Position numbers and translations under genes: made by a program. From Patescibacteria group bacterium (GTDB lineage: Bacteria; Patescibacteriota; Microgenomatia; UBA8517), in NCBI GenBank assembly GCA_035291665.1, contig DATDRP010000003.1, positions 212,549-276,548 on the forward strand: DNA of 64,000 nt, given 5' to 3'. The notes below the pieces were generated by a model. It saw nothing but the letters and a program-made list of their open reading frames with translations, searched no databases and was not told the DNA's origin. Positions 6,535-59,613 of this stretch are shown here, one piece after another (the stretch's first letter is position 1; each line of letters opens with the position of its first letter).

Positions 6535-6565
6535 GCGCCGTATTATATTATATATAAAGTGTTAT

Positions 6566-6678
6566 GACATCCTCCCCCGAGTCTGACTCGGGGGTTTCCC
6601 TAAGGAGGGGGACATATCTGAGTTCAATTCATCTACGTTCATGTAAACTTAACGTAGTTTTCTTGAAATCTGTTATAA
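6566..6678. repeat. structured intergenic repeat element (hairpin-repeat family, full-length copy)
   Basis: Perfect palindrome CCCCCGAGTC-T-GACTCGGGGG at 6574-6594. Outer pairing catcctcc...ggaggggga. Second hairpin ctacgtt...aacgtag. Conserved tail ttcttgaaatctgttataa. Related copies at 11443-11492, 33060-33265, 42173-42290 and 5221-5266. Confidence 0.7.
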
Positions 6679-7058: not shown

Positions 7059-7982
7059 ATGACGCAGACGGTTCTTGACGTTGAAAATTTCCTAAAAAAG
7101 CATACCGGTGTGGCAATTTCCGGTGTTACCCCCATCGGTAAAGGCGAATGGTCTTCTGCCTACTCATATCAACAAAATGGTTTTGGTAAAGTGATTCGTT
7201 TCAGCCGCTTCGAAGAAGATTACAAAAAGGATCGGTTTGCATCAGGCCTTTCCTCCCAAAAGCTTCCCATTCCCCCGATTGAAGAAATCGGTCAGGCTTT
7301 TAACAATTCCTTTGCCATTTCACCTCGGGTCGAAGGAAAAATGATCGACGAGCTTACTCCTTTCGAAATACAAAAAGTCATACCCGCATTTCTGGAGCTA
7401 CTTGACTCTCTTCGCTCGGCTGATGTTTCAAAAACAACAGGTTTCGGAAGTTGGGACGGAAACGGACAAGGTACAAAAAAATGCTGGAATGAATTCATCT
7501 TAGGTATTGCCTCTGACAAACCCTCTAATCGAATTGCCGGATGGAAGGAAAAACTGGCCAAGAATAAAAATACCTACAAAATATATTCTTTGGCATATGA
7601 CCGGTTAACAAATCTTATTTCATACTGTCCAAACGAAAGGTATTTGGTTCACAACGATCTTCTTCATACAAATCTAATTGTGAATGACAATAAAATTGCT
7701 GCAGTAATTGACTGGGGCTGCGCTTTATACGGTGACTTCCTCTACGATCTGGCAATGTATACCTTATGGCAATTCTATTATCCATCCATGGCTAAAATTG
7801 ACTTTAAGAATAAAGCAAAAAATTACTTCAAGGACGCTGGAGCTGACCTTCGGAATTTTGATCAGCGTTTAAAGTGTTACGAATTGCACCTTGCCCTTGA
7901 TTCAATCGCCTATAACTCATTTAAAGAGAATAGGAAGAATGTGGATCTGACTATCGGTAGAATTAAAGAAATATTGGCATAG
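7059..7982 (+). CDS. aminoglycoside/choline-kinase-type phosphotransferase (APH family)
   Basis: Catalytic loop HNDLLHTNLIV (HxDxxxxN). Metal-binding IDWG...D segment. Size ~300 aa. Confidence 0.7.
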   Translation: MTQTVLDVENFLKKHTGVAISGVTPIGKGEWSSAYSYQQNGFGKVIRFSRFEEDYKKDRFASGLSSQKLPIPPIEEIGQAFNNSFAISPRVEGKMIDELTPFEIQKVIPAFLELLDSLRSADVSKTTGFGSWDGNGQGTKKCWNEFILGIASDKPSNRIAGWKEKLAKNKNTYKIYSLAYDRLTNLISYCPNERYLVHNDLLHTNLIVNDNKIAAVIDWGCALYGDFLYDLAMYTLWQFYYPSMAKIDFKNKAKNYFKDAGADLRNFDQRLKCYELHLALDSIAYNSFKENRKNVDLTIGRIKEILA

Positions 7983-8050: not shown

Positions 8051-9004
8051 TTATTGATTTTCGGTATCTTTGCTTTTTACTATATTTGGATTTGGATATT
8101 TTACTTGCATTTTTGCATCCATTTCTTTAAACCCTGTAAGGTCAAAAATATGTGCTGGTCTTCCGTCAACTGAGAGGTAGTCTTTGGCAAAAAAACCCTG
8201 ATCAGATCGGCAATTTAATGGATGAGTATCTCGGTATTTTCTGGTGATGATCAAATCTCCACGATTTTTGACCCCTCTTGCCTGGTATTTAGTAAAAACA
8301 TTGTCAGGCATGGCCGCAAAATATGAGATATAGCCAATCTTTTTGACACCTTGCTCAATAATATCGGTCTGGATGGCAAGGTCAAAAGATTGATTGGCCA
8401 ATACCAAACCAATTAATTCTCCTGCTTTAACTTTGCCCTTATTCACATTAGGAGCTCTTTGAACATGCTGAAATTCGATAGAAATATTTGGATAAGCACT
8501 GGGGGCTACTCTTAGCTCCTGGTTATAAGAAACCCCCGAGTCATCAAAATCCAGAAAGCCGTCAACTGGTGTAAAAATTTTGACATCATTCTCCAGCGTG
8601 GGTGTAGGAAAATTTTCTATGCTCAACCCTTCATATTTATAGTTTGGCTGTTTATCATCATACGTACTGAAATAGTGCTTCATGCTCCGACATGTTTCCC
8701 CGCTTAGATAAGAATAATCATGACCCATCCCGGAACGGAATTTTGAGATACTATAAACTTTGTCGAGCTCTACAAAATCTGTCTGGATAAATTTTGAGGG
8801 ATTATCGGGGTCGATGGGTGGTTCTTCATCTACCGTTTTTTCAGCTTCTTGGAACTTTTCCTGTTTAAGTTGAGCAATATCTTTTACGATCCCTTTCAAG
8901 ACGAAAAGGAAAAAAATGAGGAGGGGAATCAGGATAACTATAAGTATCCACCTGTTATTTGGCTTCGATGGATTTTGTCTATTGGTAGTAGAAACATTCT
9001 TCAT
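8051..9004 (-). CDS. hypothetical membrane-anchored secreted protein (paralog family with 17248-18303 and 24763-25602)
   Basis: Start placed at the internal Met before the signal anchor (RWILIVILIPLLIFFLFVL). The track ORF extends to 9100. Confidence 0.4.
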   Translation of the reverse strand: MKNVSTTNRQNPSKPNNRWILIVILIPLLIFFLFVLKGIVKDIAQLKQEKFQEAEKTVDEEPPIDPDNPSKFIQTDFVELDKVYSISKFRSGMGHDYSYLSGETCRSMKHYFSTYDDKQPNYKYEGLSIENFPTPTLENDVKIFTPVDGFLDFDDSGVSYNQELRVAPSAYPNISIEFQHVQRAPNVNKGKVKAGELIGLVLANQSFDLAIQTDIIEQGVKKIGYISYFAAMPDNVFTKYQARGVKNRGDLIITRKYRDTHPLNCRSDQGFFAKDYLSVDGRPAHIFDLTGFKEMDAKMQVKYPNPNIVKSKDTENQ

Positions 9005-9759: not shown

Positions 9760-10116
9760 TTATAACTGAGATGTTAGATTATAAATCGGAAATATGACGC
9801 TTATGACCATTAATCCAACTATTGTTCCGCTTAATAAGAAAGTCACAATGGCGGTGATTAAACTATAATTAAAATAAGCATCTTTATTTTGAGTGTTAGA
9901 AAAACCCTTAATACCAAAAAAGATGTTTACTGCCGAAATGGCAAGTAGAACAACTACACTTAAATAACTAGTACTTATATTTCCTGAAGTATTTGCACCA
10001 AATTCAGAGTATAACGGAGTTAATTTTGGAATAACAAAAAAAAAAGATAAAGCAAGTAGAAGAATCGGAAATCCAAAGAAAAAGTTGAGAATTCCAACTA
10101 ACTTATATTTAGTCAT
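9760..10116 (-). CDS. small integral membrane protein
   Basis: Three predicted TM helices. Confidence 0.4.
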   Translation of the reverse strand: MTKYKLVGILNFFFGFPILLLALSFFFVIPKLTPLYSEFGANTSGNISTSYLSVVVLLAISAVNIFFGIKGFSNTQNKDAYFNYSLITAIVTFLLSGTIVGLMVISVIFPIYNLTSQL

Positions 10117-11346: not shown

Positions 11347-11508
11347 TTGTATAGTGTATCAAATTTTTGGATACATTTAGTGCCAATAGGTTATAACACT
11401 GAGCTTATCGAAGTGCTCCCCCTGGTTGGCGTATTTAAGAATGACATCCTCCCCCGAGTCTGACTCGGTGGTATTCTTGAAATCTGTTATAAATGATAAA
11501 CTGAATCC

Positions 11509-14870: not shown

Positions 14871-14911
14871 AATATTTTAACATCGAACTTGGTCAGATTA
14901 AGATAATTCAG

Positions 14912-15063
14912 CTCCTCCGGTAGGATTCCCTTCGATTACACTCAGGGTAAACTTCTCATCCTACCGAACGCTTCTACTCGCCATGCTTGCACTGAGTGAA
15001 GCGTAGTGAGCCGAAGGGCTCCCCCGGTAAGTCTACTTTTGATTACAAAAGATCTTGGCCGGT
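14912..15063. repeat. degenerate tRNA-Asn 3'-end-like direct repeats (two adjacent copies) with shared flank GCTTGCACTGAG...GCCGAAG
   Basis: ctcctccggtaggattcccttcga (14912-) and gctcccccggtaagtctacttttgattacaaaagatcttggccggt (15018-15063) resemble the genuine tRNA-Asn 3' end ctcctcggctaggatttgaacc at 18859. Confidence 0.6.
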
Positions 15064-15209
15064 TTCGCAAATTAAACTTCGTTAAATTTGCTCCCGCTAA
15101 TAAATACATTCAGGACACTTGACTATTCACAATTCCAAGACTACAAACCTCGATTTCTTCAGTCCTATCTATAATAACTTAATAAATACTAATTAGGTTA
15201 TTCAAACAG

Positions 15210-15650: not shown

Positions 15651-15980
15651 ATGATATTAAGACGGCAAATGAGGATTACACAGGATAAATATGACACGCT
15701 ACTAGATAAATATAAGAAAATTAAGGCAGATTTGTTGGTACAAATGGAACAACACAGCAGTGCTGACAAAAACTACTTTGTTAAGGCCAGTAAGTTATTG
15801 GAATTGGCTCGTAAAGCATACGAATTATTTGAAAAAGTGGATGCTTACCAAAAAAGAGAGCTTCTGTTTTACTTATTTCAGAACTCTCAAATGGACGGGG
15901 AAAAGCTCGTTCCTAGCCTCAAAATGCAATTTGATGTCATACTAGAAGCCAATAAAACAAAAGATTGGCTCCCCCGGTAG
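15651..15980 (+). CDS. hypothetical protein
   Basis: 109-aa ORF, helical and charged. No family. Confidence 0.3.
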   Translation: MILRRQMRITQDKYDTLLDKYKKIKADLLVQMEQHSSADKNYFVKASKLLELARKAYELFEKVDAYQKRELLFYLFQNSQMDGEKLVPSLKMQFDVILEANKTKDWLPR

Positions 15981-16013
15981 GTCTACTTTTGATTACAAAA
16001 GATCTTGGCCGGT
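15968..16013. repeat. 46-bp repeat copy (gctcccccggtaggtctacttttgattacaaaagatcttggccggt)
   Basis: Near-identical to 15018-15063 and 18353-18398. Contains perfect hairpin CTTTTG-atta-CAAAAG. Confidence 0.7.
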
Positions 16014-16595
16014 GGAATTTATTTCCTTTTGCCTGCCTTGAGCTTGTTTACACTGAGTTTACCGAATTGCCGAAGAGCTCTCTTATTGGGAGGAATTTAG
16101 AACTATAGCACTTCATATTTAGTTATAGATTTGAGTAAGTTTTGTACATCCACACGAGAATTATCACATTCAAGATTAATATAGCGGAATTAAATATTAG
16201 TATTACTTTGGGGGAAAACTTGGATTTTATTACAAGATAGGAATAACCGGAATAAGTTAGCAAATGAAATAAGATATTGGAAATAGTTCCCCAAGAATTA
16301 ATACTATATTCAAGTTCTCCCGATAAACAGATATTAAATGGAAAGGGAACAAATAAGTCATATTTTGGAGCACACATACAGCTTACGCACATAAAACGAA
16401 CTTCAAAAAATGAACTTATTAAGCTAAAAACTGTATAAACAACAATCTCCATTACTAGAGGTATAAAAAGAATACGTATTTGTAAGGGTGAAAGCTTCGT
16501 AATTATTTTCAATAATTCAGTATTTATTATCAGGTCAGAGAAGTCAATAAAATGGTCCAAGTTGAAATTCGCTTATTGGGAAGAATTTAGAATAT

Positions 16596-18352: not shown

Positions 18353-18468
18353 GCTCCCCCGGTAAGTCTACTTTTGATTACAAAAGATCTTGGCCGGTGT
18401 CGCAAATTTCTCTGCGATAAATTTACTCCCCCGGTAGGATTCCCTTCAGCTTCGTTCAGGGTAAACTC
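18353..18468. repeat. 46-bp repeat copy plus second tRNA-Asn-3'-end-like copy
   Basis: gctcccccggtaagtctacttttgattacaaaagatcttggccggt (18353-18398), then ctcccccggtaggattcccttcagc (18426-). Confidence 0.65.
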
Positions 18469-18769
18469 ACAACAGGTTCTCACCAGCCAGAAGAGCTTCA
18501 ACAAACTCAGTATATGTATTATATCCCAACTTGCCTTCTACTAACATTTGCTTCTTTGCTCTTGACCAACCTTTAATTTGTTTTTCTCTAATAGCTGCCA
18601 AATGTTCACCGGGATATTTTTCAGCATAAATAAGTTTCAAATCAGAAAATTTTTTGGTAAAAAAAGAGACCTTTGATTTATGTTGTTTTATTCTGTTTAC
18701 AATATCAGGGGTTATACCAATATAAAAAGTTTTTTGGTCGCAAAGAAGCATATAAACATACCATGACAC
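18467..18769 (-). CDS. GIY-YIG nuclease family protein (UPF0213/YhbQ-like)
   Basis: WYVYMLLCDQKTFYIGITPDIVNRIKQH matches the GIY-x10-YIG motif. ~100 aa. Confidence 0.7.
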   Translation of the reverse strand: MSWYVYMLLCDQKTFYIGITPDIVNRIKQHKSKVSFFTKKFSDLKLIYAEKYPGEHLAAIREKQIKGWSRAKKQMLVEGKLGYNTYTEFVEALLAGENLL

Positions 18770-18859
18770 TTATTCTTTTCCATAAAATAACCTGCACTGA
18801 GCCCTTCAGTTTCATTCAGGACTGTGCAACTGGTGCTTGCACTGAGCTTGCCGAAGTGC

Positions 18860-18930
18860 TCCTCGGCTAGGATTTGAACCTAGAACCTTCTCGTTAACAG
18901 CGAGCCGCTCTACCGTTGAGCTACCGAGGA
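18860..18930 (-). tRNA. tRNA-Asn (anticodon GTT)
   Basis: Manual fold of the reverse complement: acceptor tcctcgg/ccgagga, D arm gctc-aacggta-gagc, anticodon loop cuGUUaa, T arm ctagg-ttcaaat-cctag. Confidence 0.75.
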
Positions 18931-33059: not shown

Positions 33060-33265
33060 TTAAAAGAATTGATCCCCGGAGTCAGATTTGGGGATTTTCT
33101 TGAACATTGATGTGAAACCTCCCCGCCCTCTCGCTATCACTTTCAGGCGGGGTATCCTTTCGGATCCGTCTAAACGAGGTTACATTCTTAATTCAATTCA
33201 TCCCCATCCTTCGGCAATTGCCTTCAGATGGGGTATTCTTGAAATACGTATAAAATAATACGGAC
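33060..33265. repeat. diverged double copy of the hairpin-repeat family
   Basis: Shares ttcttgaa, ttcaattcatcc and catcc...gggg modules. Variable hairpins ccccgccctctcgctatcactttcaggcgggg and catccccatccttcggcaattgccttcagatgggg. Confidence 0.55.
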
Positions 33266-40497: not shown

Positions 40498-42039
40498 ATG
40501 TCTCAGAGTAAAAAATCTTATTTTCTGCAAATTCTTGCCGTTGCGGCAATATCGCTTTTTGTGGTTCTCCCTACTCTTATCGGGGTATTTCACAAAATCC
40601 CAGGGAAAACTTTTACCGGCAACACGTTCTATTTTGACCCTTGGGATGTGAATGTTTATGTATCCGCCGTCAACTACTCGCAAAAATTCGGGTTTGACTT
40701 TGAAAATATGTACACCACAGAAAATTTTCCGAACAGAGTAAATTTATATCCTTTATATAGCCTGACCGGAACGCTTTTCAAAAATATAAATCCATTTCTG
40801 GTGTATTACCTACTGATTATTTCCGCAATTTATGTTTTCGTTCTTGTTGTAGGTAAAACCATAAAATTTGTAATTCCTGTTCCTTTAAATAGATTTTATT
40901 TTATTATTTTACTGTCCTTGTCGGGTGGTTTTGGATGGCTATTGTTTGGCAATATTCCGTCGGCGGACATCACCACAACGCCTTTTACTTTTCTAAACAT
41001 GCTTCAAAGGCCGCATGCAACCGCCGCAATATCTTTCTATATCGCCTCTTTGATAAGCTTCTATCGGTTTTCCCAAACCAAGGCAAAGAAATATTTAACT
41101 TTATCGATCATATCTCTTTTTGTATTTGCAATATTTTATCCATATCTTTTGTTAAGCTTTTACGCAACGATTTTTATATACAGTTTGTTTTTATATCATA
41201 CGGAAAAAAACACTCTCGGAATAAAAACCGTTTTGAAAATTTTCTTCTTAACGCTTATTCCTGCCGCTATCTACTCTTTATATATTCTGAAAGGATCTCA
41301 ATTTAAAGGAGTTCTGAGTCCTAACCTGCCAACACCGCAGATTCTATATATTTTCCTCGGCCATGGTGTTTTTTTAACGGGATTAATATACCAGATCTTC
41401 AACAAAAAAAGGTCAAATCTTTCAACTTTTCTTATCATCTGGTATCTTTCGGGGATACTTCTTTCTTATGCGCCAATCTCCTTCTCGAGATATTATTTGA
41501 GTTCGCTTTTTTTCCCTATAACTCTATTACTATACATTTCCAAAAAAGATTTATTAAAGATGATCAAAAGTATCCATCTTCGAACAACGTTGGTTGTTAT
41601 ATTTATATTTTTCGGGACGCTCACCAGTTGGGTAATTCTTTTCGTCAGAATCCTGGCTGTATCGATGTCCAGCAGATGGGCTTACCTTGATGAGTCTTAT
41701 TTTGATATTTTCAAATTTCTCAATAGAAATTCCCCGTCAGGATCCGGAGTAATGGTTACCTACCCTATATCAAACTTTATTCCGGTCTACACCTACAATA
41801 AAGTCTATCTCGGACACGGTGCGCAAACTTTTAACGCAGTTGAGAAAGATGCGTTGCAGAAAAGATTTTACGATCTGACCATTTCAGAAGATGGGTTAAA
41901 TTCAATTATAAAAAGCAATGTTCGTTACGCAGTTGTTGAAAACAATTCGGTTGATATGTATCTGAACCTTAATTCCCAAACAACAAAAATCGGAAGTGTG
42001 TATCAAAGCGGGAACTATACTTTATTGGAATTCAGATAA
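40498..42039 (+). CDS. GT-C-type polytopic membrane protein (DUF2079-like)
   Basis: More than 10 TM helices plus a C-terminal soluble domain. Confidence 0.45.
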   Translation: MSQSKKSYFLQILAVAAISLFVVLPTLIGVFHKIPGKTFTGNTFYFDPWDVNVYVSAVNYSQKFGFDFENMYTTENFPNRVNLYPLYSLTGTLFKNINPFLVYYLLIISAIYVFVLVVGKTIKFVIPVPLNRFYFIILLSLSGGFGWLLFGNIPSADITTTPFTFLNMLQRPHATAAISFYIASLISFYRFSQTKAKKYLTLSIISLFVFAIFYPYLLLSFYATIFIYSLFLYHTEKNTLGIKTVLKIFFLTLIPAAIYSLYILKGSQFKGVLSPNLPTPQILYIFLGHGVFLTGLIYQIFNKKRSNLSTFLIIWYLSGILLSYAPISFSRYYLSSLFFPITLLLYISKKDLLKMIKSIHLRTTLVVIFIFFGTLTSWVILFVRILAVSMSSRWAYLDESYFDIFKFLNRNSPSGSGVMVTYPISNFIPVYTYNKVYLGHGAQTFNAVEKDALQKRFYDLTISEDGLNSIIKSNVRYAVVENNSVDMYLNLNSQTTKIGSVYQSGNYTLLEFR

Positions 42040-42040
42040 A

Positions 42041-42115
42041 ATGCGCAATCGAAAACCCTACCTCAACGCGAGTGCAACGAGCGGAGCGTCAAACGCACCA
42101 ACCGAGTTTGACTAT
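42041..42115. repeat. 75-bp direct repeat, copy 1 (copy 2 at 43026-43100)
   Basis: atgcgcaatcgaaaaccctacctcaacgcgagtgcaacgagcggagcgtcaaacgcaccaaccgagtttgact vs atgcgtaatcgaaaaacctgcctcaacgcgagtgcaacgaccagagcgtcaaacgcaccagccgagtttgactcgg. Confidence 0.8.
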
Positions 42116-42172
42116 ATAGTGTTTAGTTGAATTTATTGAAACTTATTATTAAACAATTTACTATTCTAATGG

Positions 42173-42290
42173 CATCCTCCCCCGAGTCAAACTCGGGGGT
42201 TTCCTCAAGAGGAGGATGACATATCAGAGTTCAATTCACCCTCAGATTGAAAGTCCGGGGTTCTCTTGAACGCTGTTATAGAATTTACTA
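42173..42290. repeat. hairpin-repeat family, full-length copy
   Basis: catcctcc-CCCCGAGTC-aaa-CTCGGGGG-tttcctcaagaggaggatg, acatatcagagttcaattca, hairpin ccctcagattgaaagtccgggg, ttctcttgaacgctgttata. Confidence 0.7.
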
Positions 42291-42905
42291 CTAACTCATC
42301 TTTACTTCTAATAAGGGTTTTCCGTTATCGTCTAGGACCTTTAATATTCCTGTTTGTGTATCCAAGCTGACATCCTTGCCTTCTCCACTACTAAATACTT
42401 TGACATTTTTTATCCCTTTCTTTTTCAAGTATTCAGCTATAGCTTTATTCCAACTTTCTCGATCTCCTTCCAATTCTTGCACGTATGGATCTAAACTGCT
42501 TGTGTCACCTAAGACATAAGGTAGGGCACTTTTGGATAGGTCTGGGACTGCTTCCAATAATTGATCTATAAGTTCTTCATGTCTGTTTCCCCATAAATCC
42601 ACAGCATTTATATGGATAACAGCTCCATTTTTACCAGCATTTTCATACATAGCGATAACTCTACAGGCACCACCCCATGCCTCTAATACAGGACCATCCC
42701 TACCTATAACAAAGGTATCTGCTTTTGCGTAAAGACGGCCATTTTCTCGACTGTGTCCTTCTTGCGTTTTGCCATCTTGTAGAAATGCGGACTCCCCCCT
42801 ATTACGGTTTATTCTCCTTACAGTTTTTTCCTCTGAGTGTGTTTCCATAAGTATTTTAGTTCTAACTTCCTCAATTGTGCGGTGAGGGAGGGTCTCCTTC
42901 GTCAA
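42291..42905 (-). CDS. hypothetical protein (cassette gene between 75-bp direct repeats)
   Basis: 204-aa ORF with a GC-richer, hydrophilic composition unlike its neighbours. No family recognised. Confidence 0.45.
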   Translation of the reverse strand: MTKETLPHRTIEEVRTKILMETHSEEKTVRRINRNRGESAFLQDGKTQEGHSRENGRLYAKADTFVIGRDGPVLEAWGGACRVIAMYENAGKNGAVIHINAVDLWGNRHEELIDQLLEAVPDLSKSALPYVLGDTSSLDPYVQELEGDRESWNKAIAEYLKKKGIKNVKVFSSGEGKDVSLDTQTGILKVLDDNGKPLLEVKMS

Positions 42906-42981
42906 GACTTCGAAGACTAAGGATTCTCAAGTTTTAGTATTCTAATCAAAGCAGCCTGCCGTCCCGTAGCATTGGCGTAGG

Positions 42982-43004
42982 GCGGTGAGGGAGGGATTCG
43001 AACG
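42982..43004 (-). other. partial duplicate of tRNA-Ser(GGA) 3' end (att-like)
   Basis: ggcggtgagggagggattcgaac is identical to the 3' end of the tRNA at 43102-43125. Confidence 0.7.
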
Positions 43005-43025
43005 CACAATTTGCAACACCTTACA

Positions 43026-43100
43026 ATGCGTAATCGAAAAACCTGCCTCAACGCGAGTGCAACGACCAGAGCGTCAAACGCACCAGCCGAGTTTGACTCG
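43026..43100. repeat. 75-bp direct repeat, copy 2
   Basis: See copy 1. Abuts the tRNA-Ser 3' end. Confidence 0.8.
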
Positions 43101-43101
43101 G

Positions 43102-43188
43102 CGGTGAGGGAGGGATTCGAACCCTCGATGGCGTTGCCGCCATACACGCTTTCCAAGCGAGCCGATTAAACCGCTCTCGCACCTCACC
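43102..43188 (-). tRNA. tRNA-Ser (anticodon GGA), class II with long variable arm
   Basis: Reverse complement: acceptor ggtgagg/cctcacc, anticodon loop uuGGAaa, variable stem atggcg-gcaa-cgccat, T arm gaggg-ttcgaat-ccctc. 87 nt. Confidence 0.7.
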
Positions 43189-43429
43189 TCAAATCAATCT
43201 GTATTTTATCACGACTTTATAGTCAAAATACTTCAGTTTGCATAATATAAATAAAATTTTTGAATATATAATCTCTAACATAAAAATGTCAGCCAAAAGT
43301 TGATCCGCCTCTGGAGGACAAATTCAAGTTAGAGGAGTATATTCGAAATTATTATTCTTGTAGGGCTGGGTACCCAGAAAACGGAAGTTTATCGTATATA
43401 AAACGCTTAACGTTTTTGAAGCAAAAAAA

Positions 43430-43915
43430 CTAATATTCTGTTTGCTCAGCTTGTTCATCTTCTGCAAATCTTAATTTCCCTTTTCTTTCTTTGAACCAGC
43501 TTTTAAACATCTTACCGGCATCCCGCAGTATTTGGACTTCTCTTTTAAGGTTCAATTTTTTGGAGGCTTTTGTATTCTCGAGCCACTCCGATTCGGAAAA
43601 CCCAATACTTTCTCCGGAATCCGCACGGTGCAGCATAAGATAGAAAATCTGCTTTTGATTGATTACTTTATCTCCCTTTTTAACGGTAGAATTAATTCTT
43701 CCAACCTCTTCCAGAACTTTTGCCCGCATACTACCCTGTTCACCCATGGTTCGAATGACTGCACGGACTGAAGATTCAGTCTTTCGTACCACGACTTTCG
43801 GAAGTTCCCAGCCGTTATTTTCAGCATTTTTTACGATTAACCATAAAAACTTTCCGTTAAGAACCTTAACAACGACCGCGCCTCCAATAAGCAGAATGTT
43901 TTTAAACATATTCAA
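43430..43915 (-). CDS. hypothetical protein (weakly NUDIX-like)
   Basis: 161-aa ORF. GWELPKVVVRKTESSVRAVIRTMGEQG loosely recalls a Nudix box but does not satisfy it. Confidence 0.35.
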   Translation of the reverse strand: MNMFKNILLIGGAVVVKVLNGKFLWLIVKNAENNGWELPKVVVRKTESSVRAVIRTMGEQGSMRAKVLEEVGRINSTVKKGDKVINQKQIFYLMLHRADSGESIGFSESEWLENTKASKKLNLKREVQILRDAGKMFKSWFKERKGKLRFAEDEQAEQTEY

Positions 43916-44009
43916 ATGTGTATTATATCAGGTTTTGGAAAAATCGTATTTGTAAGAAGCTCAATTCATCACACACAACAAATCCTGGCTCGGAATCGAA
44001 AGAAGAGAG

Positions 44010-44094
44010 CGGAGGTGGTGAGATTCGAACTCACGAGACCCTTGCGAGTCGAGGTTTAGCAAACCTCTGCCATAGGCCACTAGGCGACACCTCC
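44010..44094 (-). tRNA. tRNA-Ser (anticodon GCT)
   Basis: Reverse complement: acceptor ggaggtg/cacctcc, anticodon stem gaggt/acctc with loop uuGCUaa, long variable arm, T arm gtgag-ttcgaat-ctcac. Confidence 0.75.
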
Positions 44095-44161
44095 AGATTC
44101 AATCATAGTATACAGCTAACAGATCTTTTCAGCGAAATAAAAAGTATTATATAATGGATAA

Positions 44162-44713
44162 ATGCCCGAAAGTAATTCTTCACAATCAAAAGACAAAAGT
44201 CCCCGTAGCGGAAGTGTTAACGACGGTCGAATTGAACCTGAAAAGGATCTATATTCCTGGAACGCAGCCTCTCGTCCGTACAAAAAAAGAGATCGCGATT
44301 TTTGGATCACAACAGTATTGATAACGGGAATTTCGGGGATGATACTTTTGTTTGTGGAGGGATTCATGCCCGTAATTTTGATAATTTCGATTATATTTTT
44401 GTATTACATCTTAAACTCCGTTGAACCGGAAATGATTCAGTTTAAAATTACCAACAGGGGAGTCAAAATGGCCGATAAACTTAACGCATACGATGAATTG
44501 GGACGGTATTGGTTCTCCAAGAGGTACAATAATGAAATAATTGTATTTGAAGCGTATACAATCGGTGGAAGGCTTGAAATGGTAATAAACCCAACCGACA
44601 AAGAAAAAATTAAAAAAGCACTCTCGAAATATTTAACTTTTGAAGAGGTTCCGGCTTCAAAGCTTGACCAGGCGACGGAATGGTTTTCCAAAAAGCTTCC
44701 CGGAAACTCTTGA
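44162..44713 (+). CDS. hypothetical membrane protein
   Basis: Two central TM helices. No family. Confidence 0.4.
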   Translation: MPESNSSQSKDKSPRSGSVNDGRIEPEKDLYSWNAASRPYKKRDRDFWITTVLITGISGMILLFVEGFMPVILIISIIFLYYILNSVEPEMIQFKITNRGVKMADKLNAYDELGRYWFSKRYNNEIIVFEAYTIGGRLEMVINPTDKEKIKKALSKYLTFEEVPASKLDQATEWFSKKLPGNS

Positions 44714-44765
44714 AAGCAGGATTTTCGCACTTCAAACTGGTAAAATATCAATGACTTAGCTTTTG

Positions 44766-44837
44766 GCCCCTGTAGCTCAACGGATAGAGCAGCAGTTTGC
44801 GGAACTGTAGATATCAGTTCAATTCTGATCAGGGGCA
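44766..44837 (+). tRNA. tRNA-Arg (anticodon read as GCG)
   Basis: Acceptor gcccctg/caggggc, D arm gctc-aacggata-gagc, anticodon stem gcagt/actgt with loop uuGCGga, T arm atcag-ttcaatt-ctgat. Confidence 0.7.
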
Positions 44838-44875
44838 CTTTATTAGAAATTAGTTATTAGTGTTAAGTTAAACAA

Positions 44876-44965
44876 GGAGGTGTGCCAGAGCGGACGATCG
44901 GGCTTGTTTCGAAAACAAGTATCTCATGTTTAATGGGATCAGAGGTTCGAATCCTCTCACCTCCG
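44876..44965 (+). tRNA. tRNA-Ser (anticodon CGA)
   Basis: Acceptor ggaggtg/cacctcc, anticodon stem cttgt/acaag with loop uuCGAaa, long variable arm, T arm agagg-ttcgaat-cctct. Confidence 0.75.
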
Positions 44966-45024
44966 CTCTCTTCGCTCACTTCGGTGTAAGGGTTCGATAT
45001 TGCGAATCAAGGATTAAAACTGTG

Positions 45025-45047
45025 CAAGGCGAATCTTCTCACATCCG
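45025..45047 (+). repeat. degenerate copy of tRNA-Ser(CGA) 3' end (second copy at 46181-46204)
   Basis: aaggcgaatcttctcacatccg and aaggcgaatcttctcacctccgcc vs the tRNA 3' end ttcgaatcctctcacctccg. Confidence 0.65.
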
Positions 45048-45281
45048 CAGATTGGAACAATTCTCGGGTTTTAAGAGTATGTCATACGACTGTTGAGTGA
45101 AGCTCCAAACAAGCTTTTTGTCCTTAACCATCACGCTCTAACCGACTTTTTCAACCGCTTTGCGTTTTGATATTAAATCACCACTTAAAATCAATTCCCG
45201 AGCTTGGAAAGCCGTAGTTATAAAATCTTCGGCTAGTTCCAACCAATAACGTTGAACATAACCCGTCATCAGTTTTTGAGC

Positions 45282-46133
45282 CTACCTTAAACCCTCTACG
45301 AAGCGTCTATCACCATAATATCGTGCATATGTGGCAAGGCAAAGCCTCGCATAGTCAAAATATGAGGTTTGCCTTTGGAAACCCGTTGGATAGCCATTAG
45401 CTCTTACAAGGTTCATTCCGGCAGCCCAAGCGTTTCTTTCATGAAATAAGTGAATTGTTTTGTCTACTCCATGACTTCGTGCTTCTAGACGAGTGAGTGC
45501 ATATCTTGTTGCTTCAAAAGGTGGTTGTTGTTCCCGAATACCGTACGGGAGTGCGTGGGCTAATTCGTTACCATAGGTTTGCACCATTGCAACAGGTGGT
45601 AAATCCCTTCCCTTTAGTGATATGGCGGCTTTAAGTAATCGCGTATCAAGGTCGTTGTGGAATATCAATACATGACCTAACTCATGATAAGTGGCGGACA
45701 TTCTAGTCATGTTTTCCTTTAACTCATCTACTTGTAGGCCAATGACGTAAAATGGATACTCTCTTCCACTCATGAGCGGGTCATGCGCATAAAACCCGTT
45801 TGTTGTACCAGTAAATAAAACCGGTTTTCCCTTTGAAGTTGTAAGTGATAAGTTAGATTTTCTAATATTACCTTTTTTCCTAACTTGTTCTAATTTTCCC
45901 GTATAAACCTGAATATGGCTAGACATGCCAAATCGTTCGGGCATGTTATACGTTCCAACTTGAGAAAAGGTAAGCCTTGCGTTTGGCCAGACAATTTGTG
46001 CCGGGAGCGGTATATGAGCAGCTTGGTCAATATCAATTTCCGTAAAGCTACTTTCAATCCCACCTTCAATTCGTGCCTCTTGTGGACGGGGTCTTTCATA
46101 ACCACTAGTACCGCTCTCAATTCCCATAATCAC
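45282..46133 (-). CDS. putative HExxH zinc metallopeptidase (cassette gene)
   Basis: YHELGHVLIFHND motif. Bounded by the two tRNA-3'-end-like repeats. Confidence 0.5.
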   Translation of the reverse strand: MIMGIESGTSGYERPRPQEARIEGGIESSFTEIDIDQAAHIPLPAQIVWPNARLTFSQVGTYNMPERFGMSSHIQVYTGKLEQVRKKGNIRKSNLSLTTSKGKPVLFTGTTNGFYAHDPLMSGREYPFYVIGLQVDELKENMTRMSATYHELGHVLIFHNDLDTRLLKAAISLKGRDLPPVAMVQTYGNELAHALPYGIREQQPPFEATRYALTRLEARSHGVDKTIHLFHERNAWAAGMNLVRANGYPTGFQRQTSYFDYARLCLATYARYYGDRRFVEGLR

Positions 46134-46180
46134 ATATTATACTATAAGCTATAATTAAATTAAATGATTTTATGCTTTGT

Positions 46181-46204
46181 AAGGCGAATCTTCTCACCTC
46201 CGCC
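46181..46204 (+). repeat. degenerate copy of tRNA-Ser(CGA) 3' end, distal
   Basis: aaggcgaatcttctcacctccgcc, followed by the GACTCAGACTCGG palindrome-like motif. Confidence 0.65.
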
Positions 46205-47091: not shown

Positions 47092-47523
47092 ATGGTAATT
47101 TATAACAAAAAAGCAAAATTTAACTATAAACTGTTTGAAACTTTTGAGGCAGGGATAGTCCTTTCCGGCTCAGAAGCCAAGTCAATTCGGACACATCGGA
47201 TCGATTTGTCCAATTCGTATGCAAAAATCATACAAAATGAAGTCTTTTTGATTAATGCAAATGTCCCGATACCCGGAAAGAAGGATTACGATTCAACGAG
47301 AACCCGAAAATTGCTTCTTCATACACGCGAAATTACGTCAATACAATCGAAGATCAAGGCTAATAAATTGACTCTGGTACCAGTTAAATTGTATAATACT
47401 GGACATCTTTTTAAGCTTCAGCTTGCGTTAGCTAAGGCTAAACGTAAGTTTGAAAAGAAAGATAGTATCAAAAAAAAGGATATTGAGAGGGAAATTTCCT
47501 CTCAGTATAAGAGTTCAGTCTAA
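47092..47523 (+). CDS. smpB: SsrA-binding protein SmpB
   Basis: NKKAKFNYKLFETFEAGIVLSGSEAKSIR is the canonical SmpB N-terminus. Located immediately upstream of the tmRNA. Confidence 0.9.
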   Translation: MVIYNKKAKFNYKLFETFEAGIVLSGSEAKSIRTHRIDLSNSYAKIIQNEVFLINANVPIPGKKDYDSTRTRKLLLHTREITSIQSKIKANKLTLVPVKLYNTGHLFKLQLALAKAKRKFEKKDSIKKKDIEREISSQYKSSV

Positions 47524-47576
47524 GCCTAAGGTGTGTAAAATTTCCTTAGACTTATACCTAAACTTAGACTTTTTTT

Positions 47577-47974
47577 GGGGACGACCGGTTTCGACGGGAA
47601 AGCACCTTAAAAAACTGCAAGCCGAGTTTAATTCACACTCGCTAATAATGGATTAACAAATAAACGCTGATAACGAAAGTTACAGTCCAGAAGCAATAGC
47701 TTCAACTTTGCTCGGTACTAACCAAGCCAATTGGGCATTTGCTTAAACACTGGTGTCGTTTGAAAGGTTCTCAATCGTTTCAAAACGGCATAAACCTATT
47801 GAGATAAGCCAACAGCCGTTGACTGCAAGCTGTAGGTCGAAAAATATTCAGTCTTACTTGAAAGAAGGTCGTTAGTAATCTAACTTTCAAGAAAATATAA
47901 AAATACTAACTAAGCTTGTAAGAAAAGTTTTTTATTTACTTTTTCGGACGAGGGTTCGATTCCCTCCGTCTCCA
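47577..47974 (+). ncRNA. ssrA: tmRNA (ssrA)
   Basis: 5' GGGGACGACCGGTTTCGACGGG. 3' GGACGAGGGTTCGATTCCCTCCGTCTCCA paired with the 5' end. Internal tag ORF ...ANWAFA-stop. Confidence 0.9.
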
Positions 47975-47983
47975 CATATAAAA

Positions 47984-48012
47984 ATCCAGGTATTGCTACC
48001 TGGATTTTTTTA
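47984..48012 (+). terminator. rho-independent terminator of ssrA
   Basis: ATCCAGGTA-ttgc-TACCTGGAT followed by T7. Confidence 0.75.
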
Positions 48013-48128
48013 TGCTGAAAACCAAAGGAGGGATGAGAATTTATTCGCTCACTAGATTTGCGGCTTTGAAATCTTTAGATGAAAAATAAAGCAAACCTAG
48101 TGATATGAAATTTGTCTGAATTTCATAT

Positions 48129-48146
48129 TCCCTCCGTCTCCACCAA
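48129..48146 (+). repeat. duplicate of tmRNA 3' end (ttccctccgtctccacca)
   Basis: 18-nt identity with 47960-47976. This copy carries a full CCA. Confidence 0.7.
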
Positions 48147-48239
48147 GTCGAACTTGGTTTCGCCGAGTCAAAGCGAAAGCAAGGTTGACGCAGGTAGTCG
48201 AGTTTGACTCGACACCTTCTTTTTGTATATATTTTGTTC

Positions 48240-48524
48240 ATGAACAAAACGTCAGACGTTTTGTTAAAATTCTACGTTTATACACTTCTCTCACTAAAGG
48301 ATAAAAAATTTTATACTGGTTACACTACCGACTTGAAAATTCGGCTTACTCAACATTCAAAAGGTTTGGTCAAGTCCACAAAGTTAAGAAGGCCTTTCAA
48401 ACTAATTCATTACGAATATTTTATAAACGAGGAAGATGCAATGTCCCGAGAGCGCTTTCTAAAAAGTGGTTTTGGAAGAAAACAATTAAAAAACGCATTA
48501 AAGAGAACTTTGAGAAATATTTAA
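48240..48524 (+). CDS. GIY-YIG nuclease family protein (UPF0213-like)
   Basis: FYVYTLLSLKDKKFYTGYTTDLKIRLTQH matches the GIY-YIG motif. Start taken at the internal Met. Confidence 0.65.
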   Translation: MNKTSDVLLKFYVYTLLSLKDKKFYTGYTTDLKIRLTQHSKGLVKSTKLRRPFKLIHYEYFINEEDAMSRERFLKSGFGRKQLKNALKRTLRNI

Positions 48525-48559
48525 AATCCAGTTCCGGATTTGCTTTCAGAAACAAACAC

Positions 48560-50425
48560 TTAATTTAGTCCAAACTCCCACAGCTTTTCGGGGGTCATTA
48601 CCAAAACCTTATCATCGACAACCAAGATAGCATTTGCATCGGAAAATACATCGCTTTCGTAATATTTTTGATAATTCCCCTCTTTGTCAAATACGACAAT
48701 TCTTTTTAGGTTGGGTACAAGAATATATAACTCATTTAGATTTTCGTCCGTATATATGCTTTTCCCATCAGCTATTTCAAACGGTACACCTTTAGGTGTA
48801 AAAGATATATCATTTCCCAGGCTGAAACGTCGTATTTTACCGCTACCTTTCAAAACCCAAATACTTCCGTCAAATGCCCATGAGACCGAGTCGCCAATAT
48901 CAGAACTTTCAGCCGTAAGCCACGCCGATCCGGACGAAAAACCCGACTCCGTACCTGCATATTTCGTAATTGATCCTTTACTTTTACTTAAGAAGTACAA
49001 GTTTGAAGCAAAGGAATACAATAACCCGTCGTCAAAATCCGCATCAACCACCCTTTTTAAGGACCCTCCGCTCTCCGAATATATACCATCATTTTTTAGT
49101 AAATATACATTTCCGAGGCTTGAAGATATTCTTTTTGAACCCTCAACAGCATCTGACCCCAAGAAACTTAACGATTTCTTACTCTCAAAAACTATCGAAA
49201 CCACTTTTTTCGATTCAGACGACAAAACATAAATTGTTCCGTCAGATATGGTTATATCGCTTCCCTTGAACCCATCCGACAGGAGTGTTAAGTCCAAATA
49301 AAGCTGGGGATTAACCATATACTCCCCCAAAACCTTACCCTGAGAATTTTTAATATTCGCAGATAATTCTGTCAGTTTTGAGTCGTCAATTCCCCGGGAG
49401 GTGAGAGATTCTGTGATACTTCTTGACTCAATAAACATGTCCCTTGCCCTATTCGGATCAAGCGCTATCAACTTCTGCGATTCATCATATAAAGAAACTG
49501 CTTTAATAAGATCTGATTCATACGAGCTTTTATATTCTGAGTCCTGCTTTTTCTTAAGACCAAAGACAACGCTTACTCCCAATAAAGTAAGAAGAATCAA
49601 ACCAAGAAAAAGCGTACTTTTCTTTCTACTCCCACCGGCGACATCTTCCTCAAAACGGGATTTTACAATTATTCTTTTTACGGGGATAAGGCCTTTTAGT
49701 CTTTCCAAAAAATTAATTTTCGGATATTCCGGTTGAGTGGCTTCTTCATCAACAACCTCTTGAGATGCGTCCTGGGTATCAAGCTCTTCAAGTGTTTTTT
49801 GAAGTTTGCCGGTAAATTCTATTACCAAAACACCTTTCTTCCCCGAACTTCCGTCATTTGAAACCATGGGGGCAAGAACTTCAAGGGCGTCTTTTAGACC
49901 ATACCCCAGCGCGTTTTTCAATTCGGAATTTTTTATCCCTGACATGAAGCCGTTTGTTGAGAGAATCAGGAAATCTTTGTCTTTTGCGTAGCCGTTTGCA
50001 GAAATCACTTTTTCGCCAAAACTGTCAAGAATTCTGACCAGATAGTTATCCCTCAGAAGGATAACTTTTGTACCGTTAGTGCAAACGGCATAAATATTAT
50101 TTCCGACTACAGAAACGGCGGCGATTTCAAAATGGAGCAGGAATTTTTCAAATTCATCATAAATTTTGACAACCGCATCCCGTAAAGCGTTAAGGGGTTC
50201 TTTATCAATATTTCCAAAATATTCCTCCTGCAGCCTCTGAAGACATTCTCTTCCCAACTTGGCGCTTTCTATATCAATATTGTCCTTGCTGGCGCTGAAA
50301 AGAACATGAATTTTTCCCCTTTTAATCTGCTTTTCAGGAGTGGCAGGGAAAAAATCATACGCCTGTGTCCATCCGGAACCGTCGGGGTTACCGGTAAGCT
50401 TTACGCAGTTTGTTCCCAAATCCAT
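48560..50425 (-). CDS. membrane protein with N-terminal cytoplasmic degenerate PP2C-like domain and large extracytoplasmic beta-rich domain
   Basis: AAVSVVGNNIYAVCTNGTKVILLRDN resembles PPM motif 3-4 without the GDSR metal ligand. Single TM near residue 265. Confidence 0.4.
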   Translation of the reverse strand: MDLGTNCVKLTGNPDGSGWTQAYDFFPATPEKQIKRGKIHVLFSASKDNIDIESAKLGRECLQRLQEEYFGNIDKEPLNALRDAVVKIYDEFEKFLLHFEIAAVSVVGNNIYAVCTNGTKVILLRDNYLVRILDSFGEKVISANGYAKDKDFLILSTNGFMSGIKNSELKNALGYGLKDALEVLAPMVSNDGSSGKKGVLVIEFTGKLQKTLEELDTQDASQEVVDEEATQPEYPKINFLERLKGLIPVKRIIVKSRFEEDVAGGSRKKSTLFLGLILLTLLGVSVVFGLKKKQDSEYKSSYESDLIKAVSLYDESQKLIALDPNRARDMFIESRSITESLTSRGIDDSKLTELSANIKNSQGKVLGEYMVNPQLYLDLTLLSDGFKGSDITISDGTIYVLSSESKKVVSIVFESKKSLSFLGSDAVEGSKRISSSLGNVYLLKNDGIYSESGGSLKRVVDADFDDGLLYSFASNLYFLSKSKGSITKYAGTESGFSSGSAWLTAESSDIGDSVSWAFDGSIWVLKGSGKIRRFSLGNDISFTPKGVPFEIADGKSIYTDENLNELYILVPNLKRIVVFDKEGNYQKYYESDVFSDANAILVVDDKVLVMTPEKLWEFGLN

Positions 50426-58303: not shown

Positions 58304-58642
58304 TTGGATATGAGAAATTTATTGGCTCAAGGTTATGTGGTTAATTTGGATCCTCCCAACCAATTTCAAAATCTTGAAAATATTGATTTTGGATCACTCG
58401 TAACCATCGCGATTGCGTTTGTCATGATCGTTGCCGCCATTGCATTCTTCTTTATCCTGATCTTGGGTGGAATCAAATGGATCACCTCCGGTGGGGATAA
58501 AGGTAGAACTGAAGCTGCCCGCAGTCAGATTACAGCTGCACTTATTGGTCTTGTAATCGTATTTGCTTCCTGGGCAATCCTAAATATTGTGGAAAACTTC
58601 TTCCAGGTTAATTTGAGAAGCTTTAATCTCAACCTGTTTTAA
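58304..58642 (+). CDS. TrbC/VirB2-type pilin-like protein
   Basis: TM1-GGIKWITSGGDKGRTEAARSQ-TM2. Confidence 0.65.
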   Translation: MDMRNLLAQGYVVNLDPPNQFQNLENIDFGSLVTIAIAFVMIVAAIAFFFILILGGIKWITSGGDKGRTEAARSQITAALIGLVIVFASWAILNIVENFFQVNLRSFNLNLF

Positions 58643-58714: not shown

Positions 58715-59041
58715 ATGAATCTATTAGCACAAGACACAGTCGTACTTAATGCTCCGGCAGGTTTTGAAAACCTTGAAAACATTTCGTTCGGAGGATTAGT
58801 GGGACTTGCTATTTCGTTCGTTCTGATTATTGCCGCAATCGCTTTCTTCTTTATGTTGGTCCTAGGTGGAATCAAGTGGATTACCTCAGGAGGAGACAAG
58901 GGAAAGACAGAAGCAGCCAGAAACCAGATTACAGCCGGATTGGTTGGTTTGGTTATCGTCTTTGCTGCGTGGGCAATATTGACTCTAATTGAAAGCTTCT
59001 TTGGTGTAAGTTTGAGGACATTTACAATTCCTGGAACTTAA
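58715..59041 (+). CDS. TrbC/VirB2-type pilin-like protein (close paralog of 58304)
   Basis: TM1-GGIKWITSGGDKGKTEAARNQ-TM2. Confidence 0.65.
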   Translation: MNLLAQDTVVLNAPAGFENLENISFGGLVGLAISFVLIIAAIAFFFMLVLGGIKWITSGGDKGKTEAARNQITAGLVGLVIVFAAWAILTLIESFFGVSLRTFTIPGT

Positions 59042-59528: not shown

Positions 59529-59613
59529 GGAAATTTGTCATGATGCCACTTTATCCCCCGAGTCTAACTCGATAGACACCTTGAACATATGATAAAATTT
59601 GTAAACAATACAT

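Follow-up and report, generated by a model that had tools for sequence, protein, structure and literature searches.

Why should a bacterial genome carry the 3' end of its transfer-messenger RNA (tmRNA) gene twice, the second time just ahead of a small gene for a GIY-YIG nuclease? The question is raised by a 64,000-nucleotide stretch of contig DATDRP010000003.1 of a Patescibacteria group bacterium (the window; positions are numbered from its first letter and refer to its forward strand unless the minus strand is indicated), a CPR (candidate phyla radiation) organism of the Rifle aquifer whose nearest named relatives are Woesebacteria/Microgenomates. Comparison of this locus with its relatives indicates that two events are superimposed. 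The repeated tmRNA end is, on the alignments, the scar of a later 168-bp insertion that separated the tmRNA gene from the element behind it. That element, to which the small nuclease gene belongs, is apparently one of a large and undescribed family of mobile cassettes lying 3' of tRNA and tmRNA genes in the ultra-small bacteria of the CPR. The reading favored here combines the history of the locus with homing: the GIY-YIG gene is carried by a compact, selfish cassette (~415 bp) that moves among the 3' flanks of tRNA and tmRNA genes in CPR genomes. We assign it a probability of about 0.6. The duplicated tmRNA end is of modest interest on its own; the cassette family behind it is of greater consequence.

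The tmRNA gene itself (ssrA, 47577-47974) is intact. ARAGORN places it at 47577-47975, and the Rfam model RF00023, covered from position 1 to position 374, scores 166.4 bits against a gathering score of 47; the two agree on an intact gene beside smpB (47092-47523; Pfam PF01668, SmpB, 144 bits), which lies upstream at a spacing of 53 nt. The acceptor stem, GGGGACG/CGTCTCC, is tRNA-Ala-like and retains the G3:U70 pair, and the T-arm, the resume codon and the tag reading frame are all present. At its 3' terminus (47974) the gene reads ...GGGTTCGATTCCCTCCGTCTCCA and is followed directly by CAT, so that CCA is not encoded.

The 15-mer TTCCCTCCGTCTCCA, which extends from T-loop to discriminator, is present at exactly two places in the window: at 47960-47974, where it forms the functional 3' terminus of the tmRNA gene, and at 48128-48142. 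(Chance would provide ~0.06 matches even with two mismatches allowed, and two matches were found in none of 100 shuffles.) Copy 2 continues into an encoded CCA (TTCCCTCCGTCTCCACCA, 48128-48145), marks the left border of the cassette, and occupies the position that is taken by intact tRNA and tmRNA ends in related cassettes. The initial annotation, made from the letters alone, had recognized this duplication and the CCA of its second copy; its placement of that copy at 48129-48146 is off by one base, and the gap between the copies is 153 nt rather than 155.

What separates the two copies is inserted DNA. In the closest cassette relatives (81-87% identity; L091-L095, and also L014; such handles designate related loci where these need to be told apart) the tmRNA gene is intact and directly abuts H1, the first hairpin of the cassette, with no insert in between. 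The junction reads ...GGTTCGATTCCCTCCGTCTCCACC|GAGTCAAACTCGG in L095 and ...CTCCACCA|AGTCAAACTTGG in L094, and the window has the same junction, ...GTCTCCACCA|AGTCGAACTTGG, at copy 2. Because the tmRNA-H1 junction of the relatives is kept there, the orphan copy is taken as the original, now displaced, tmRNA end. Relative to L091-L095 and L014 the window has gained 168 bp, consisting of 153 new bases (47975-48127) and a 15-nt duplication that starts in the T-loop, that is, a target-type duplication due to insertion. A direct repeat of the 3' part of the gene is present at both ends of the insert, as at integrase-type islands, and the suspicion initially voiced, that this is an attL/attR remnant, was to that extent right about the geometry. 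Neither the GIY-YIG gene nor an island lies between the repeats, however; they bracket a gene-less insert, and no integrase, transposase or recombinase domain was found among the Pfam-scanned genes next to the tRNA loci of the window or among the precomputed Pfam marks on the neighbors of the relatives' cassettes.

The segment 47577-48560 is identical in four independent assemblies (L001, L002, L004 and L005). The insert has no long open reading frame (ORF), and no second copy of it is found in the window or in all of the fetched loci. It places an intrinsic terminator (47980-48011; a 13-bp hairpin and a T run) directly 3' of the tmRNA gene and has a terminal hairpin at 48103-48128; insert and orphan end together (47975-48145) are predicted to form a very stable fold (z = -6.2). 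A segment of the insert, GGAGGGA (48027-48033), can pair with TCCCTCC of the orphan end, enclosing two hairpins, which may be meaningful or chance.

The cassette (~415 bp, 48146-48559) comprises, in order, hairpins H1 and H2, a promoter, an ATG with hairpin H3, the nuclease gene and a conserved tail. H1 (ACCAAGTCGAACTTGGT, 48142-48158) draws its left arm from the ACC of the RNA gene 3' end. H2 (GTCGAGTTTGACTCGAC, 48197-48213) overlaps a -35-like TTGACT (48204-48209), which is followed by a -10-like TATATT (48228-48233); a promoter scan scores this arrangement, TTGACT-18-TATATT ending 6 nt upstream of the ATG, at 10 of 12. H3 (AACAAAACGTCAGACGTTTTGTT, 48243-48265) lies directly past the ATG and encodes the conserved 'NKTSDVL'. 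The nuclease gene (48240-48524) starts 94 nt past the end of copy 2. Throughout the related loci the spacer between RNA gene and ORF has one architecture, and the three-hairpin layout is seen in ~75 distinct leaders. H1 is kept at the same position in nearly all cassettes, joined to the ..ACC of the RNA gene as ACC|GAGTCWAACTCGGT; the loop and 3' arm of H2 (for example, GGTGATCGAGTTTGACTCGACACC) read TTGACT, with the TATATT box to follow; H3 (AAAACGTCWGACGTTTT) is located at the ATG or just past it.

H1, H2 and H3 have a GTYWRAC core in common. There are 208 instances of this core in 11.8 kb of leaders versus 83 in 258 kb of surrounding DNA. The four bases that flank it on either side are complementary 89-93% of the time, and each of these positions shows several types of pair. 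Perfect hairpins of the cassette type number seven in the window, versus 0.58 in shuffled sequence, and the leader of the window cassette folds as three hairpins (z = -3.5). The distance between -10 box and ATG recurs in 21 related leaders, and a Shine-Dalgarno motif is present in 0 of 69. The placement of the -10 box 6 nt before the ATG and the lack of a Shine-Dalgarno motif imply that the nuclease mRNA is probably leaderless, starting with AUG and H3. H1 and H2 look terminator-like. An Rfam scan of 47900-48620 at a permissive threshold yielded nothing above gathering score except tmRNA, so that the cassette leader is not a described RNA family.

Two other identities for these parts were considered. 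The hairpins as mimics of the T-arm were set aside, since neither the length nor the sequence of the core is that of a T-loop. A group I intron bearing a GIY-YIG gene within the T-loop of the tmRNA was rejected: no intron model matches, and the cassette is located outside a tmRNA gene that is itself intact.

Hairpins are also found within hairpins. In L016, L034, L069/L085 and L090 one hairpin is inserted at the center of the core of another (an example is GAGTTTGAC-CAAGTCAGACTTGG-TTTGACTC, with TTTGAC repeated), and the L055 leader has three tandem hairpin copies. Such arrangements suggest that hairpin units multiply by themselves. A hairpin with a cassette-type core, CCCCCGAGTCWRACTCGGGGG, is present in five copies elsewhere in the window (6564-6604, 11441-11481, 33064-33104, 42169-42209 and 59545-59585); a promoter-like TTGAA..TATAA block lies within 30-170 nt of four of the five, and at 11441 this block overlaps the hairpin.

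The conserved tail (48509-48568) reads FEKYLKSSSGFAFRNKHLI* in a frame that differs from that of the nuclease; cassettes behind tmRNA and behind tRNA-Ala have it as well, in frames that vary. A stretch FEKYLKxxSGFAFRNKRLI* past the nuclease stop is seen in the window and in L093, L094, L012, L013, L015 and L020; its substitutions resemble a coding pattern, it is in frame 0, +1 or +2 relative to the nuclease, and it has no start codon. The possibility that 'SGFAFRNKRLI' is a C-terminal extension of the nuclease was rejected, since it is in frame in no listed homologue and its frame varies.

How general is the placement behind an RNA gene? The nuclease has 590 homologues at 65-87% identity, and those with a named source are mostly Patescibacteria. 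Eighty related metagenome loci were fetched by protein pattern alone. In ~52 of these 80 the nuclease core is preceded on the same strand by a tRNA or tmRNA gene whose end is 94-203 nt (mostly 94-133) away, which bears out the early surmise that these GIY-YIG genes are tied to tRNA-type loci. Besides tmRNA, the upstream RNA genes include tRNA-Ala, Glu, Gly, Lys, His, Val and Phe, and three more diverged second copies in the 80 loci likewise follow tRNA-Ser or tRNA-Leu. Most of the remaining loci are on contigs cut off within 200 nt, have tmRNAs that ARAGORN missed, or have short 3' fragments such as ATGTCCACC. Eight loci (L022, L024, L029, L031, L042, L064, L080 and L086) have, ~30-130 nt upstream of the nuclease, sequences such as TTGGACTCCGAGTCACTCTCGGACATCTCCACC that resemble the 3' ends of tmRNAs whose T-loops are non-standard; ARAGORN called no tmRNA in any of the eight, and several have smpB and the usual neighbors. 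The literature searched for GIY-YIG together with tRNA, tmRNA, CPR or UPF0213 does not describe the arrangement or its hairpins, with coverage that is incomplete and novelty accordingly not proven.

The cassette is patchily distributed, and its empty site can be recognized. In the window the insertion site is bordered on the right by a convergent 621-aa gene (48560-50425, minus strand). In L009 the homologue of this gene ends ~20 nt from the tmRNA with no cassette in between; L006 is also empty, and both keep the order smpB-tmRNA-621-aa gene. The synteny of smpB and tmRNA extends to L006-L009, L093 and L094. Syntenic relatives found by way of SmpB (L006-L009) retain the tRNA-Ser/Arg cluster together with smpB and tmRNA, and have no GIY-YIG gene within 6 kb. 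Conservation of the GIY-YIG genes in place across distant relatives, named at the outset as the sign of ordinary housekeeping genes, is thus not what is found, the gene being absent from syntenic L006 and L009.

Nor does the cassette stay with one RNA gene. Nuclease cores that are 92-95% identical lie beside tmRNA and tRNA-Ala(GGC), and beside tRNA-Gly(GCC) and tRNA-Gly(UCC); the RNA genes paired in this way by near-identical cassettes have similar 3' ends. For the same pairs of genomes the nuclease is 70-83% identical versus 42-60% for SmpB. Two cassettes are present on several contigs. In L025/L027 and L090 a 17-18-nt copy of the tRNA 3' end follows the cassette at its right edge; right-edge duplicates with a score of at least 9 are found in 4 of 46 loci (one of these is a neighboring tRNA gene) versus 1.4% of controls. 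That the cassette moves, or has at the least changed its place often, is well supported by these comparisons of sequence. The structure of the cassette, its position, its patchy distribution over multiple loci and the order of events at the window locus all come from comparison.

The protein has 94 residues and consists of a minimal Slx1/UPF0213-type domain (PF01541, 56.7 bits, against a Pfam cut-off of 22.6). Judged by sequence similarity it is a member of the bacterial Slx1-like/UPF0213 branch. Residues Y14, Y25, G27, R35, H39 and E59 (the GIY and YIG tyrosines and the Gly, Arg, His and Glu of the domain) are invariant in 30 homologues, and the closest solved structures by sequence are PDB 1ZG2 (BH0048; E = 7.5e-9) and 1YWL (EF2693; E = 6.9e-8). 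Proteins of the family are 85-110 aa long; the cassette nucleases, at 85-95 aa, are single domains with no auxiliary domain. Eukaryotic members of the Slx1 branch are structure-specific nucleases, and for the bacterial Slx1-like family the published view is one of vertical inheritance and a probable link to repair; a fusion to a TrmH-type tRNA methyltransferase led the authors to propose a role in RNA metabolism (PMC1564403).

Comparison with the relatives gives the following sequence of events at the locus. At the empty site, the tmRNA gene was followed directly by the convergent 621-aa gene. Insertion of the cassette at the tmRNA 3' end created the junction ...GTCTCCACCA|AGTCGAACTTGG... Subsequent insertion of 168 bp into the tmRNA T-loop (153 new bases with a strong terminator, plus the 15-nt duplication) rebuilt the tmRNA gene with a CCA-less end and pushed its old end, with the cassette, downstream. 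The nuclease may act in this by cutting cassette-free tRNA-type loci, or the hairpin cores, with the cassette being copied in by repair of the double-strand break (homing). Short homology in the tRNA 3' end might guide the insertion; it would account for the movement of cassettes between tmRNA and tRNA-Ala, and likewise between tRNA-Gly(GCC) and tRNA-Gly(UCC), pairs with alike 3' ends.

The three GTYWRAC hairpins could be the nuclease's own sites of binding or cleavage, occasionally seeding new hairpin copies, and binding to them could provide autorepression at the -35 box and the mRNA start. Recognition of a hairpin or cruciform structure is favored, since the eukaryotic members of the Slx1 branch are structure-specific. 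The more ambitious proposal that results, that minimal Slx1-like GIY-YIG proteins, hitherto treated as housekeeping proteins, constitute self-mobilizing CPR cassettes that home to the 3' flanks of tRNA and tmRNA genes and whose own hairpins, recognized as structure-specific substrates, serve as target, operator and nesting mobile units, is put forward tentatively and must be considered somewhat doubtful. If true, it would make these cassettes the GIY-YIG counterpart of REP/RAYT (REP, repetitive extragenic palindromic) or IS200-type hairpin systems, and would explain many T-loop-to-3'-end duplications behind tRNA genes without an integrase.

Several observations weigh against the selfish homing cassette. 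The nuclease lacks a C-terminal DNA-binding domain, and its score with TIGR01453, the group I intron endonuclease model, is 24.8 against a cut-off of 56.05; on these two counts it is not a classical I-TevI/Seg-type enzyme. We know of no cleavage activity or target for any bacterial UPF0213/Slx1-like protein. A clear duplicate at the right edge is seen in ~3 independent cases of 46; most cassettes are without one, and it does not define the family. The same hairpin core is found away from cassettes, upstream of ordinary promoters, and could be a host regulatory or terminator motif. The high conservation of the protein may reflect strong selection, not recent transfer. Finally, blocks that run from T-loop to 3' end are the classical signature of a tyrosine integrase, which could be acting in trans.

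This last point can be expanded into an explanation of the whole locus: elements with a tyrosine recombinase would have entered tRNA and tmRNA 3' ends repeatedly and been deleted almost entirely since, leaving cassettes and insert in the scars as passengers with no movement of their own. Identity from T-loop to 3' end is the classical att geometry at tRNA genes, and it is seen at the tmRNA, at tRNA-Ser(gga) and tRNA-Ser(cga) of the window, at three tRNAs of L007, and in L025 and L090; the tandem arrays of copies described below would fit serial integration. Against this, the Pfam-scanned window genes next to tRNA loci and the Pfam marks on the relatives' cassette neighbors show no integrase; the inserts measure only 35-1200 bp, and most cassettes lack the right-hand att copy. 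Random decay of larger islands would also not yield the fixed distance between cassette and RNA gene that is kept in >50 independent lineages. We regard this explanation as unlikely.

Alternatively, the GIY-YIG gene could be a housekeeping or RNA-linked gene (for tRNA metabolism, repair or defense) that uses the strong transcription of the tRNA gene, its hairpins being terminators, attenuators or sites for a host factor. The terminator-like appearance of H1 and H2 and the occurrence of the same core upstream of unrelated promoters in the window would fit, as would the view in the literature of vertically inherited repair proteins and the RNA role proposed from the TrmH-type fusion (PMC1564403). 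Against it stand the patchy distribution, with empty sites in syntenic relatives, the near-identical genes at different tRNAs and the multiple copies on some contigs; the ORF-less remnants and orphan 3' fragments, and the predicted promoter of the cassette's own, also speak against it, and make it decidedly improbable. That the 15-nt repeat is due to chance or an assembly artefact is hardly credible, for only its shortness favors the idea, and the expectation of ~0.06 matches, the four identical independent assemblies and the location of copy 2, with its CCA, exactly at the canonical cassette border oppose it.

The selfish cassette has partial precedents. T4 SegB, a GIY-YIG homing enzyme encoded in a tRNA gene cluster, promotes the inheritance of its own gene and of the flanking tRNA region by cutting the rival allele (PMC2330249), and the cassette would act in the same manner. 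Like SegB and the free-standing GIY-YIG homing endonucleases of T4, the cassette nuclease genes are intergenic, located beside tRNA genes and patchily distributed, and these are the nearest functional precedent (PMC2330249). In contrast with T4 SegB, the cassette is chromosomal in CPR bacteria, keeps a fixed distance from the RNA gene 3' end, has three hairpins of the same type, and is known from sequence. The proteins also differ, Seg enzymes and I-TevI having 200-250 aa and a C-terminal DNA-binding domain, and the window protein consisting of a catalytic domain of 85-95 aa from the Slx1-like branch. In its minimal single-domain architecture it resembles the UPF0213 (YhbQ) proteins 1ZG2 and 1YWL, and by relation to Slx1 a structure-specific nuclease activity, on hairpins or junctions, is plausible. 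Unlike the UPF0213 family as described, genes of the window type behave as mobile multi-copy cassettes at tRNA 3' flanks, with cognate non-coding ends.

With tRNA and tmRNA islands and prophages (attL/attR) the locus shares the repeat from T-loop to 3' end, the rebuilding of the gene by the incoming copy with displacement of the old end, and the tandem arrays. Those islands are of kilobase scale, whereas here the inserts are of 35-1200 bp, there is no integrase, and a GIY-YIG nuclease is the one recurrent cargo. The likeness to REP/RAYT and IS200/IS605 systems lies in palindromic hairpins with conserved core and covarying arms, multiplying and nesting near a small nuclease gene; the difference is that the enzyme is GIY-YIG and not HUH, that the hairpins are few per window and concentrated in the leader, and that the link between hairpin and enzyme would be one of inference. 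Two known kinds are extended here: elements targeting the 3' ends of tRNA genes, and free-standing ones that resemble homing endonucleases.

If correct, the cassette reading supplies a first biological context for the bacterial Slx1/UPF0213 proteins, with the conserved hairpins as a candidate substrate. To our knowledge this is a widespread family with solved structures and without a known function or substrate. The cassettes would also be a common and compact source of genome change in CPR bacteria, and at essential tRNA and tmRNA genes. The tiny genomes of the CPR are usually described as poor in mobile elements. For annotation, an orphan 3' end of a tRNA or tmRNA gene, or an 'MNKTSDVL' N-terminus close to a tRNA gene, can be read in these phyla as a cassette feature, the cassettes explain why many tRNA genes there end ..CC|G with a hairpin fused to them, and several tmRNAs with odd T-loops are missed by ARAGORN.

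The window has one other GIY-YIG gene, which the initial annotation had correctly placed beside tRNA-Asn. This gene (18467-18769, minus strand; 100 aa; PF01541, 60.5 bits) lies 88 nt downstream of tRNA-Asn(GTT) (18858-18930, minus strand; ARAGORN and Rfam), on the same strand, and the tRNA gene is the anchor of a second type of cassette. The two proteins are 37% identical. The second GIY-YIG family is widespread in Microgenomates (429 matches), and the ends of its cassettes differ from those of the first type. The conserved left end is ..GGAGCAC|TTCGGCAAGCTCAGTGC. The right end is GTTTACCCTGA..GAAGGG|AATCCTACCGGGGGAGTA in the window and TGA GTTTACCCTGAG..CGAAGGG|AATCC..CCGGGGGAGC in the family, and AATCCTACCGGGGGAGTA, with which the tRNA-Asn cassette closes, is a diverged tRNA 3' end. 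The same ends are found in five distinct contexts from relatives, though with no tRNA within 1.5 kb, and this subfamily therefore carries tRNA-3'-like sequence in its own right end. Direct repeats of the GGAGC type flank the element, and 10-15-nt inverted matches (CTTCGGCAAGCTCAG) are seen in four of five loci; they equal or come close to the best among 300 shuffles, which is a borderline result.

An ORF-less mini copy of the second cassette, with both ends, is located at 14902-15012 (minus strand), and fragments with the left end only are at 11384-11419 and ~16060-16090; these look like decayed or non-autonomous copies. A 78-nt module is repeated at 15018-15095, 15968-16045 and 18353-18430 (71-91% identity). 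It contains a CTTTTGTAATCAAAAG hairpin and has a tRNA-3'-like minus-strand end, ..ACCGGGGGAGC, and one of its copies directly follows the tRNA-Asn cassette.

Duplication of a 3' end is not confined to tmRNA. Two further copies of the 3' end of tRNA-Ser(gga) accompany that gene (42878-43188, minus strand), one an exact 22-mer that begins at the first base of the T-loop (42981-43002), the other with two mismatches (42878-42893). Two copies of the 3' end of tRNA-Ser(cga) lie downstream of it (44876-46203), at 45030-45048 and 46185-46203. In L007 three tRNA genes are each followed by one or two units of 44-58 nt that end in the tRNA's own 3' end. In all these duplications identity starts in the T-loop or the T-stem and runs to the 3' end.

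Other features surround these copies. Near tRNA-Ser(gga) a 77-nt trailer that opens with a cassette-type hairpin recurs at 91% identity 985 bp away (42037-42113), and the two trailer copies bracket an ORF of 204 aa (42291-42905) with no family match. The copies of the tRNA-Ser(cga) end bracket a 283-aa ORF (45282-46133, minus strand) with an HExxH motif but without a match in Pfam; L006, L007 and L009, which are syntenic, lack this ORF. A cassette-type hairpin, CGACTCAGACTCGG, comes after the last of the copies. The L007 units (~7500-7560, 8700-8830 and 9940-10033) have no GIY-YIG gene nearby; they are tandem and of 55-58 nt at tRNA-Ser(gct) and tRNA-Ser(cga), and the 44-nt unit at tRNA-Ser(tga) includes the motif that second-type cassettes have at their right end.

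The tag encoded by the window tmRNA is, according to ARAGORN, ADNESYSPEAIASTLLGTNQANWAFA (26 aa), in agreement with the initial reading of its sequence. It had also been singled out as longer than typical. Tags of relatives range from 12 to 30 aa (12 in L093, 19 in L095, 23 in L094, 28 in L006, 30 in L091; a 5-aa call for L009, AKAEL, was judged unreliable and is excluded from this range), so that length is a trait of the lineage and not special to this locus. The tRNA cluster beside smpB (43100-44966) contains Ser(gga), Ser(gct), Arg(gcg) and Ser(cga) and is without the tRNA-Ser(tga) that is present in the same cluster of the relatives compared (L006, L009). Farther away, among small ORFs near type IV secretion system (T4SS)-pilin-like genes, a 262-nt direct repeat (58364-58625 and 58763-59024; 71% identity, 399 nt apart) probably represents tandem paralogues.

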